UHGV virus genome: UHGV-0795596
Length of the DNA stretch: 10,345 nucleotides
Reading direction: 5' to 3' (one strand)
Source: a virus
Shown: positions 7,171 to 9,036 of the stretch, piece after piece
Position numbering within the stretch: the first letter of the stretch is position 1
How the letters are laid out: each line of letters opens with the position of its first letter
Position numbers and translations under genes: made by a program
The notes under the pieces: generated by a model
Databases searched by the model: none
Told to the model about the DNA's origin: nothing
What the model saw: only the letters and a program-made list of their open reading frames with translations

Positions 7171-7761
7171 ATGGCTGAACGTTGGACTAAAGAAGGTATT
7201 ATTGAATCCAAAACGGATTTAGAAGGCGGGTACGTCAACGACCCTGACGACTTAGGTGCAGAAACGAACCACGGTATCACGGTAACGACTGCACGTGAGT
7301 ATGGTTATAAAGGGAAAATGAAAGACCTTACCCGTGTTCAAGCTTTTGACATTTACGATCGTGGTTGGTGGAAGAAACTCAAACTCGATGAGATTTTTGC
7401 TATCTCGCCTTTACTGGCTGACCGGATGTTTGATTTCGGAATTAACGCAGGTCGTGCCAACTGCGTGAAATCGCTCCAGCGTATTCTCAACGTGTTGAAC
7501 AACGAAGGTAAACTCTACGCGGACATCGATGCTGACGGTGGAATGGGGCCTAAAACGCTGGGCGCGTTGAACGCGTATCTGAAATACCGTAAAGATAAAG
7601 GGTTAAGCATTTTAATCTTTGCGTTAATCTCGCACCAAGTAACTTACTACACGGAAATCTCCGAAAAACGTAAGAGAAACGAGAAATACACCTACGGCTG
7701 GTACGGCCGCGTGTTCAGAGAAATGGCAGATTATGCGGTGAAAGCGGGGTTAGTAAAATGA
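7171..7761 (+). CDS. endolysin: glycoside hydrolase family 108 N-terminal domain plus PG_binding_3-type peptidoglycan-binding domain (196 aa)
   Basis: N-terminal 'LEGGYVNDPDDLGAETNHGIT' matches the GH108 signature (EGGY with catalytic Glu, then D.G..T..GIT). C-terminal 'YGWYGRV' matches the PG_binding_3 signature. SD GGGAG at 9 nt before ATG. No signal peptide or TM segment. Assigned from remembered family motifs, not a search. Confidence 0.8.
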   Translation: MAERWTKEGIIESKTDLEGGYVNDPDDLGAETNHGITVTTAREYGYKGKMKDLTRVQAFDIYDRGWWKKLKLDEIFAISPLLADRMFDFGINAGRANCVKSLQRILNVLNNEGKLYADIDADGGMGPKTLGALNAYLKYRKDKGLSILIFALISHQVTYYTEISEKRKRNEKYTYGWYGRVFREMADYAVKAGLVK

Positions 7762-7862
7762 ACTGGTTTGCTAAACTCTTAGTGTTATTGTGGAAAGCGT
7801 TAACGTCTGGTCGAAAACGTAAAGACGAAAAACGTGGGCAAGAATTCTTCTGGTTTTTGTAA
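7758..7862 (+). CDS. small ORF (34 aa, MNWFAKLLVLLWKALTSGRKRKDEKRGQEFFWFL): amphipathic hydrophobic N-terminus, Lys/Arg-rich centre, aromatic C-terminus; candidate lysis accessory peptide
   Basis: ATG 7758 overlaps the endolysin stop TGA 7759-7761 (ATGA coupling). Ends TAA 7860-7862, just before the SD of the next gene. Absent from the ORF track because of its length; translation done by hand. Confidence 0.4.
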   Translation: MNWFAKLLVLLWKALTSGRKRKDEKRGQEFFWFL

Positions 7863-7877
7863 GGAAAGGTGTGGGTA

Positions 7878-8543
7878 ATGGAAAAGCTTCAATATAAACG
7901 TTTAGATAATAAGTGGTTTGTATTAACGGAGGATTACCATTATCCGTTTACGTTACGTGAGATTTATCACGACCACGTACACTTAGACCGTGCGGTTTAT
8001 TTAACCGGTGTATTACCTGACACGCAACTGTGGTTAACCGCTCCGAAAGGGTTCGTAACGGACTTAGCGTCGATACCCGAACGCTTACAGGGAATTTTCC
8101 ATCCTGACGGGCCTTGGGCACCGGCTGCGTGTATTCACGACTTACTCTATCAAAAATGTAACACGGAGCGTAGCTATCCCATGACACCGGGTGGTAACGT
8201 TTCGCGTATTATCGATAAAGAGTTCTCTGACTTAACATTCCTGCGTATTATGCAGTCGTTGGAAATCTCGCCTTATATCTGCCAAACATTTTATAAGGCC
8301 GTTGTTGAATTCGGCTGGGATGCCTACGTAGATCCTAATGCAAAACCATCCTACAGCACTAACGCGTTTCGTACGTTAGATTACAATCGAAACTATTTAT
8401 TCGTTCGCGAGTTTAAGGAACCTGCAATCCCTAACCACGAACGTATTGATATCACCACAGAACAACCCGTTAATGTCAAATACCTGAACATCAAACGCGC
8501 TTTTCTGTCAGGGAGGGAAGATGTTTCATCCAAATCCGAGTAA
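7878..8543 (+). CDS. DUF1353-like protein (221 aa)
   Basis: SD AAGGAAAGG (7861-7869) 8 nt before ATG 7878; the track ORF opens at GTG 7869. Core 'GFVTDLASIP...AACIHDLLY' matches the remembered DUF1353 signature (TDGASIP ... HD.LY). No TM segment. Confidence 0.6.
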   Translation: MEKLQYKRLDNKWFVLTEDYHYPFTLREIYHDHVHLDRAVYLTGVLPDTQLWLTAPKGFVTDLASIPERLQGIFHPDGPWAPAACIHDLLYQKCNTERSYPMTPGGNVSRIIDKEFSDLTFLRIMQSLEISPYICQTFYKAVVEFGWDAYVDPNAKPSYSTNAFRTLDYNRNYLFVREFKEPAIPNHERIDITTEQPVNVKYLNIKRAFLSGREDVSSKSE

Positions 8544-9036
8544 TTTTAAACTCAGAGAGTTAGTACCACAGTCTTATATTGCCAAATACGGCGATTCTGC
8601 AATCCGGTTTATGAACCCGTTGTTAATGATTTCGCTACAACAGATTCGTAATCGTTTCGGTAGAATGGTGATTAACTCAACCGCTTCACAACAACGCGGA
8701 CTAAGAACCTTAGATTTCTTTATTAATCAAGAAAAGCCTAAGGGTGGTAGTTATAAACAACGTGCGTTACAGCTTTACGCCGATTCAGGAAGTCAGCACA
8801 AATTCGGTAACGCCATTGATGCAACGTTGTTGGATAGCACCGTAAAACAGGTTCACGACTATATCGCTGCTAACCCCGACGAGTTTCCGTTCATTCACTT
8901 TATTGAATGTGACATCAGTTGGTTACACATCGACGTTCGTAACCAGCCTAACATTACTTTCTGGTCACCAAATCGTGGCACTGTGAAGGTTGTTAAGCAA
9001 AAACCAATCGATTGGAGCGCCTTAGTCGAGATTTAA
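8521..9036 (+). CDS. peptidase M15-type zinc peptidoglycan peptidase-like protein (171 aa)
   Basis: 'SQHKFGNAIDAT' fits the M15 zinc-binding motif S-x-H-x-x-G-x-A-x-D, and a downstream 'SWLHIDV' supplies a candidate third His ligand. SD GGGAGGG 3-4 nt before ATG. Starts 23 nt inside the DUF1353 CDS (coupled). Confidence 0.6.
   Translation: MFHPNPSNFKLRELVPQSYIAKYGDSAIRFMNPLLMISLQQIRNRFGRMVINSTASQQRGLRTLDFFINQEKPKGGSYKQRALQLYADSGSQHKFGNAIDATLLDSTVKQVHDYIAANPDEFPFIHFIECDISWLHIDVRNQPNITFWSPNRGTVKVVKQKPIDWSALVEI

Follow-up and report, generated by a model that had tools for sequence, protein, structure and literature searches.

A conserved cluster of GH108, cationic peptide, DUF1353 and M15 genes as a candidate envelope-degrading module of SPN3US-like jumbo phages

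Tailed phages are understood to lyse Gram-negative hosts in an ordered process in which a holin acts first, followed by the endolysin and then by the spanin. About 15% of the tailed phages of such hosts carry no recognizable spanin (10.1101/515445), and neither a holin nor a spanin is annotated in the jumbo phages resembling Salmonella phage SPN3US. How may such a phage take apart the envelope of its host? In this work, the question was addressed for a four-gene cluster in the virus genome UHGV-0795596, a sequence of 10,345 nucleotides (hereafter the window, which denotes the whole stretch analyzed). The cluster encodes an endolysin, a peptide of 34 amino acids (aa), a DUF1353 protein and a protein resembling M15 zinc peptidases. 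In the best-supported reading, which we consider moderately probable, it is a conserved non-virion envelope-degrading module of SPN3US-like jumbo phages that acts at host lysis. The individual protein families are known, and the cluster is present in phages sequenced already; we found no earlier description of the DUF1353 protein, commonly labeled a tail assembly chaperone, as a phospholipase, or of the module as a parallel to the ttsA/ttaP genes of the typhoid-toxin islet.

The phage is an uncultivated relative of SPN3US within the phiKZ-related group of jumbo phages. Its M15-like protein is 78% identical to SPN3US gp158 and its DUF1353 protein about 60% identical to gp157, while the best DNA match to a cultured phage amounts to 75% over only about 450 nucleotides (nt). 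Near-identical DNA was found on a 109.5-kb Logan contig and on IMG/VR contigs of 220-225 kb, all of them uncultivated, and contig L014 shows 94% nucleotide identity with the window.

Predicted activities of the four products

The first gene (7171..7761, + strand) encodes a GH108 + PG_binding_3 N-acetylmuramidase. Its product matched the Pfam domains Glyco_hydro_108 (75.6 bits) and PG_binding_3 (61.5 bits), both above the cut-offs, as well as the endolysin family phrog_315 (E 8e-42), and residues 6-179 were aligned without gaps with TtsA (PDB 6v40, E 1.3e-43) and Sen1395 (6v3z, E 1.3e-41). The catalytic triad of TtsA consists of Glu14, Asp19 and Thr28 (PMC6996933, which also describes the two structures); in the alignment Glu14 and Thr28 are matched by E18 and T32 of the phage enzyme, and the position of Asp19 is taken by N23, followed by D24. 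Neither a signal peptide nor a transmembrane domain (TMD) was found in the protein, the maximum of its Kyte-Doolittle (KD) hydropathy being 1.18. Judged by its sequence, it is a predicted soluble GH108 muramidase and a close homolog of TtsA and Sen1395, in agreement with the muramidase-like endolysin proposed in the initial annotation.

The last gene (8521..9036, + strand) encodes a predicted divergent zinc peptidase of the M15/LAS fold with the predicted Zn ligands H93, D100 and H136. The motifs SQHKFGNAID (H93, D100) and WLHIDV (H136, D138), which hold these ligands, are invariant in 30 homologs, as are R62 and D138; the protein thus shows the H-x6-D arrangement and downstream His of M15 peptidases, within SxHxxGxAxD and HxD motifs, and the features of the LAS fold. 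The protein itself had no Pfam match at E<=0.1, whereas 17 of the 30 homologs matched Peptidase_M15_3 (best 6.8e-8) and 15 matched M15_4. A direct sequence search of the PDB gave a chance match only, and a profile search of the PDB with the M15 alignment gave only a spurious A32 match and a weak one to VanX. The invariant ligand motifs and the family matches of the homologs favor the M15-type assignment made initially, and the TtsA-like muramidase and M15/LAS peptidase families together support the idea that the sacculus would be cut at two different bonds. In the SPFM phage records (P0027-P0031), the M15 homologs of 160-173 aa gave BLASTP alignments over only 12-13% of the query along with good HMMER scores, and these gene models may be frameshifted or otherwise corrupted.

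The third gene (7878..8543, + strand) probably starts at ATG 7878 rather than at the alternative GTG 7869, from which residues are numbered here. Its product matches Pfam PF07087 with 54 bits (cut-off 22.5, E 1.3e-14), in line with the initial DUF1353 assignment. TtaP, a DUF1353-domain protein of 125 aa, is a phospholipase A2 (PLA2) distant from the group XIV secreted PLA2s; its activity was verified biochemically, and its catalytic residues are the dyad H70/D85 and D71, which adjoins the His (Gartly et al. 2024, PMC11525133). The putative catalytic residues of the phage protein, H90, D91, Y94 and D121, are encoded at ~8136-8231, and H90-D91-x2-Y94 and D121 are invariant in an alignment of 36 jumbo-phage homologs. 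In a wider set of 61 members, which adds 25 unrelated small-phage members to the jumbo-phage homologs, D91 is present in all, and the His and D121 in 60 each. The spacing from H to D is 15 in the short DUF1353 members, the same as in TtaP, and the phage protein has the features of the helical PLA2 core fold; a PDB profile search with the DUF1353 alignment gave no match. The PF07087 match and the conserved H-D...D residues place the protein, as a predicted enzyme, in the TtaP class of PLA2s, so that the third enzyme would target lipids, by analogy with TtaP, and not peptidoglycan. The label of a tail assembly chaperone or tail assembly-like protein, which is carried by phrog_1158 and by many GenBank and RefSeq records, has no experimental basis that we could find, and the near-invariance of the catalytic residues in the 61 members is unexpected for a chaperone.

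The second gene (7758..7862, + strand) is a short open reading frame (ORF) whose start overlaps the endolysin stop (ATGA, at 7758), as described initially. It encodes the 34-aa cationic peptide MNWFAKLLVLLWKALTSGRKRKDEKRGQEFFWFL with a net charge of +5, for which no match was found in Pfam, PHROG or NCBIfam. The ORF is intact in five close relatives, and homologs with charges of +6 or +7 occur at the same position in SPN3US (unannotated, L001 8052-8159), SPAsTU, phiEaH2 (gp076) and Asesino (gp172), where they share the pattern NWF-x2-L-x7/8-AL-x5-R(R/K)KR and a start at or across the endolysin stop codon. From this conservation the 34-aa ORF is judged to be a real gene. The hydrophobic moment of 0.43 in the window and 0.53-0.61 in the homologs would fit an amphipathic helix. 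As a transmembrane (TM) segment the peptide does not qualify, its KD maximum being 0.63 with two Lys within the hydrophobic stretch.

Further micro-ORFs were noticed in SPN3US, where three conserved ones at 136,033-136,323 (L001 8052-8159, 8101-8286 and 8250-8342) fill the 290-bp gap that separates gp156 from gp157 and have no entry in either the RefSeq or the GenBank annotation. The first encodes the cationic peptide, the second bears the motif DSGFFKLLRAIF-RRV, the start of which is similar to the C-terminus of the window peptide (GQEFFWFL), and the third encodes a 30-aa TM-like peptide, MQYDNDDWPKGLMPILLGLMVLTMLVRYMT.

Conservation, expression and virion content

Across genera, the gene order endolysin, micro-ORF(s), DUF1353, M15, convergent lipoprotein and DUF7941 paralog is shared by Seoulvirus and the window lineage, and synteny of the cluster is kept in SPN3US, SPAsTU, SPLA3, phiEaH2, Asesino and L004. 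The genes for gp156-gp157-gp158 of SPN3US and their equivalents in phiEaH2, Asesino and SPAsTU are direct orthologs in the same order (59-78% aa identity), and the SPN3US-type loci are flanked, like the window cluster, by DUF7941 head-protein paralogs, a convergent lipoprotein gene and radical-SAM genes. The loci differ in the small ORFs between endolysin and DUF1353, of which the window has one, Erskinevirus two and Seoulvirus three, including the 30-aa TM-like peptide. Erskinevirus has no M15 gene, and Derbicusvirus carries an overlapping DUF1353-M15 pair apart from the endolysin; the member that stays constant is DUF1353. That the four genes are tightly coupled in translation and syntenic across genera argues for a shared function.

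All that was initially described of the locus is present: four ORFs, the overlaps among them, and a hairpin terminator on either side. The upstream hairpin (7110..7133, +, scored on the - strand too) has a 9-bp stem with 6 GC pairs and a T-run, and is separated from the endolysin ATG by only 37 nt. A hairpin directly 5' of the endolysin start is kept in SPN3US, SPAsTU, phiEaH2, Asesino and L004, and in SPN3US its T-run touches the ATG. The stretch from the hairpin to the endolysin start yielded no sigma-70-like site, and no motif common to other intergenic regions was found upstream of the endolysin. Since the hairpin abuts the endolysin start in every relative and leaves no space for a promoter, attenuated expression by read-through is suggested; transcription would probably be late and would come from the upstream genes for head-protein paralogs. 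The downstream terminator (9120..9147) is bidirectional, with an 11-12 bp stem and T-runs on both strands, and closes both the cluster and the convergent lipoprotein gene.

In SPN3US, mass spectrometry of virions found the products of the flanking genes, gp155 and gp160, to be abundant, while gp156, gp157 and gp159 were not listed; gp158 was represented by two to three spectra, only in tailed particles, and was later judged not to be a true virion protein. These data disfavor the possibility, raised initially, that the DUF1353 and M15 proteins form a structural unit of the virion.

In unrelated phages, DUF1353 genes are found in lysis loci among other contexts. In Fusobacterium phage phiRTG5 the gene order is endolysin, hypothetical protein, DUF1353 and holin, and in Caulobacter phage Seuss it is DUF1353, one further gene, two holin/antiholin genes, endolysin, i-spanin and finally o-spanin. 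In 25 non-redundant small viral contigs, the immediate neighbors of DUF1353 include five holin-family matches as well as SLT, lysozyme and Amidase_2 matches, and M15_4, holin and Amidase_3 matches lie within three genes on either side. Small TM proteins were seen nearby at 15 of the 25 loci, a count that has no proper background control and is given little weight. DUF4376, with one match per set, was the only possibly tail-related Pfam match among the neighbors.

Among the flanking genes, three DUF7941 proteins (5747-6595, 6609-7106 and 9773-10303) surround the cluster and belong to a large family of SPN3US head-protein paralogs with 17 members (Thomas 2016), of which gp160 is an abundant head protein. 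The convergent gene (9155-9634, - strand) encodes a 159-aa lipoprotein with a signal peptide, an LASC lipobox and Ala at +2; it has orthologs in SPN3US (gp159), phiEaH2 (gp078) and Asesino (gp174), matches phrog_9559 (unknown function), has no Pfam match and was not found in SPN3US virions. It may act in the envelope or in exclusion, or be connected with lysis. Further upstream, the hypothetical proteins encoded at 3501-3929 and 5149-5580 are paralogs (33% identity, E 3e-26), and by eye the ORFs 2163-2708 and 3951-5072 look internally repeated.

Membrane steps and rival explanations

The central problem posed by the cluster is passage through the membranes. In all four proteins the KD hydropathy stays below 1.6 over every 19-residue segment, and none of them matches a holin family in Pfam, PHROG or NCBIfam. 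Likewise, no spanin pair is apparent in the cluster, which holds no TMD protein; the only lipoprotein (9155-9634) lies on the opposite strand and has neither a C-terminal TMD nor a partner. The initial statement that the cluster contains no TMD, holin or spanin is supported, together with the anatomy and the two-bond attack on the wall; the view of DUF1353 as a possible peptidoglycan-remodeling partner of M15, one of the alternatives offered initially, is disfavored by its predicted place in the TtaP class. In the complete SPN3US genome, no holin or spanin was annotated in RefSeq or detected by family search. The lysis cassette of phiKZ has been defined experimentally as i-spanin gp141, o-spanin gp141.1, class III holin gp142, regulator gp143 and endolysin gp144 (PMC12894885), and tblastn with gp141, gp141.1, gp142 and gp143 gave no match in SPN3US.

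Synteny provided a candidate for the missing holin. Directly after the homologs of phiKZ gp139/gp140, SPN3US encodes a 190-aa membrane protein (84,978-85,550) with a soluble N-terminus of ~100 aa, two hydrophobic segments and a charged tail, and the same gene is present in Erskinevirus and in the window lineage (192 aa, L104 7532-8110), at the position where phiKZ has its spanin and holin genes. The lineage of the window was reached with an alignment of a conserved neighbor, as scans with a single SPN3US lipoprotein or holin-like protein reached close relatives only. By position and topology, the 190/192-aa protein is a holin candidate. It is plausible, as one of the initial alternatives held, that holin and spanin are encoded outside the window, and supply of the holin from there is most likely; unconventional membrane steps, the other alternative, are a possibility that gains weight from the conserved cationic peptide and from the PLA2. 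Elsewhere in SPN3US, a run of four tiny TM proteins (63, 67, 43 and 35 aa) is encoded at 171,400-172,092, and gp204/gp205 (180,017-180,976, L012) are a type-II membrane protein with a Pro-rich tail and a following 159-aa lipoprotein. As candidates for the missing spanins gp204/gp205 were downgraded, being syntenic with phiKZ gp156.1/gp156 beside RNase H, not with gp141/gp141.1, and having no family matches.

In the envelope-degrading module that we favor, the cluster would yield four translationally coupled products. The TtsA-like muramidase would cut the glycan strands, the cationic amphipathic peptide would act on membranes, the TtaP-class PLA2 would turn membrane phospholipids into lysophospholipids and fatty acids, and the zinc peptidase would cut peptide stems or cross-links. 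Because the three enzymes carry no export signal, the inner membrane must be breached, for which a holin encoded elsewhere is the likeliest means, perhaps with help from the small peptide. After entry into the periplasm, the muramidase and the peptidase would take the sacculus apart; the outer and inner membranes would be weakened by PLA2 and peptide, which would supplement or replace spanins. One may speculate that the PLA2 is latent in the cytoplasm owing to a need for Ca2+, like other secreted-type PLA2s. The release of typhoid toxin by TtsA also needs perturbation of the outer membrane by bile salts or cationic peptides (PMC11525133), and this need may parallel the proposed action of the phage peptide and PLA2.

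Several observations weigh against this proposal. The hydrophobic moment of the window peptide is not above that of shuffles of the same composition, and the holin candidate, proposed from position and topology only, has no sequence similarity to phiKZ gp142. Deletion of ttaP in S. Typhi gave no envelope or secretion phenotype (PMC11525133). The genomic context of DUF1353 is mixed, with recognizable lysis neighbors at only about one third of the surveyed loci and portal, head-morphogenesis, RNase H and thymidine kinase genes among the other neighbors; and the complete spanin pair that Seuss carries in addition speaks against the PLA2 as a general substitute for spanins. Finally, the SLT protein gp198, annotated as 'putative endolysin' in several records, is another endolysin candidate in SPN3US-like phages, so the cluster may be accessory.

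In another explanation, which we regard as unlikely, the GH108 gene is the only lysis gene of the cluster. A multigene lysis system with holin, spanins and perhaps the SLT protein gp198 would lie elsewhere, and the peptide, DUF1353 and M15 would be accessories dispensable for lysis, with roles, for example, in envelope remodeling, in walls of stationary-phase cells or with LD-cross-links, in the release of vesicles or in effects on superinfection. Such a system could draw on gp198, the small TM protein clusters at 171.4-172.1 kb, the TM/lipoprotein pair at 180.0-181.0 kb and the membrane protein that SPN3US, Erskinevirus and the window lineage share at the position of the phiKZ cassette, and it would resemble phiKZ, whose cassette is fully canonical (PMC12894885); the lack of M15 in Erskinevirus and the silent ttaP deletion fit as well. 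However, none of the TM candidates of SPN3US matches any holin or spanin family, the phiKZ counterparts of gp204/gp205 are not the spanins of that phage, and the translational coupling of the four genes and their cross-genus synteny point to a function in common.

The opposite extreme, lysis independent of both holin and spanin, is still less probable. Here the peptide and/or the PLA2 would permeabilize first the inner membrane, acting on it from the cytoplasm, and afterwards the outer one, in keeping with the failure of annotation, family searches and tblastn with phiKZ gp141-143 to reveal a holin or spanin in SPN3US, and with a conserved cationic amphipathic peptide coupled to the endolysin gene; a precedent is found in phage phiKT, where the cationic peptide gp28 takes the place of spanins (bioRxiv 10.1101/515445). 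Yet a conserved membrane protein occupies the holin position, and the peptide does not have the properties of a TMD. Moreover, TtaP was over-produced in E. coli for active lysates, and S. Typhi expressing TtaP had no overt envelope damage (PMC11525133), so a cytoplasmic PLA2 is not obviously lytic. Very improbable, in our estimate, is a role of DUF1353 as tail assembly chaperone or other morphogenetic or virion factor, with M15 as a virion-borne wall hydrolase for entry. Beyond phrog_1158 and the many record annotations, its support comes from the few gp158 spectra in tailed particles, from some DUF1353 genes that adjoin head or tail-fibre genes and from an M15 homolog between head and tail genes in VP2/J2-type vibriophages; against these stand the enzymatic nature of TtaP, the founder of the family, with the near-invariant catalytic residues, the absence of gp157 from virions, the view of gp158 as a contaminant, and DUF4376 as the sole possibly tail-related neighbor match at the 25 small-phage loci.

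Relation to known systems and implications

The closest parallel outside the SPN3US group is the typhoid-toxin islet of Salmonella Typhi, in which the same two protein families, TtsA and TtaP, are encoded together. As both belong to one islet, the phage carries as neighbors homologs of both non-toxin islet genes, and since its endolysin is a close homolog of TtsA, the pairing of a muramidase with a PLA2 recurs independently. The likeness to TtaP rests on the shared Pfam domain and the published catalytic H-D...D residues; at 221 aa the phage protein is longer than TtaP (125 aa), with additional beta segments at both termini and an insertion that separates H from D. Unlike the phage cluster, the TtsA/TtaP pair works in the release of toxin without lysis and shares its transcription with toxin genes, and the phage adds the peptide and the M15 peptidase. 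In the related jumbo-phage lineage of phiKZ, gp141/141.1/142/143/144 form a late-acting multigene lysis cluster centered on the endolysin (PMC12894885), of which only the SLT domain of the endolysin has a detectable SPN3US homolog; the cluster of the window differs from that cassette in its GH108 enzyme, in the lack of a TMD protein and in its two additional enzymes.

Lipid-directed steps in lysis have precedents of other kinds. In mycobacteriophages, the wall hydrolase LysA is paired with LysB, which hydrolyzes lipid esters and so attacks the outer lipid layer during lysis (PMC8309991); LysB, whose target is the mycomembrane, is a cutinase-like mycolyl-arabinogalactan esterase, whereas the protein described here is a predicted PLA2-fold enzyme of a phage with a Gram-negative host. 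The phiKT peptide gp28, termed disruptin, is cationic and amphipathic and breaches the membrane without a spanin, a role that has been shown experimentally (10.1101/515445). In phage WO, a cassette with a patatin phospholipase A2 beside a holin-like gene has been proposed as a hypothesis only (PMC9203015). No sequence relationship to either system is apparent for the peptide and PLA2 of the window, the WO enzyme having a patatin fold and not a DUF1353 domain.

A wider and more doubtful possibility, which we put forward tentatively, is that DUF1353 proteins constitute a widespread and overlooked fourth class of phage lysis enzyme, PLA2s released with the endolysin to dissolve the membranes of the host. 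The PLA2 of SPN3US-like jumbo phages, together with the coupled peptide, would then do the work of the spanin and possibly part of that of the holin, and ttsA/ttaP would be a domesticated fragment of such a cassette, which would explain the role of TtaP as the outer-membrane-perturbing partner of TtsA. The combination of muramidase, peptidase, phospholipase and cationic peptide, evolved for joint action on enterobacterial envelopes, is also attractive for enzybiotic use. Should the PLA2 prove to work within a lysis cassette, the tail assembly chaperone label found in hundreds of phage records would have to be amended, TtaP, the sole gene of the typhoid-toxin islet lacking a known biological role, would gain a concrete and testable function, and a lipid-hydrolyzing step would be added to the model of phage lysis.

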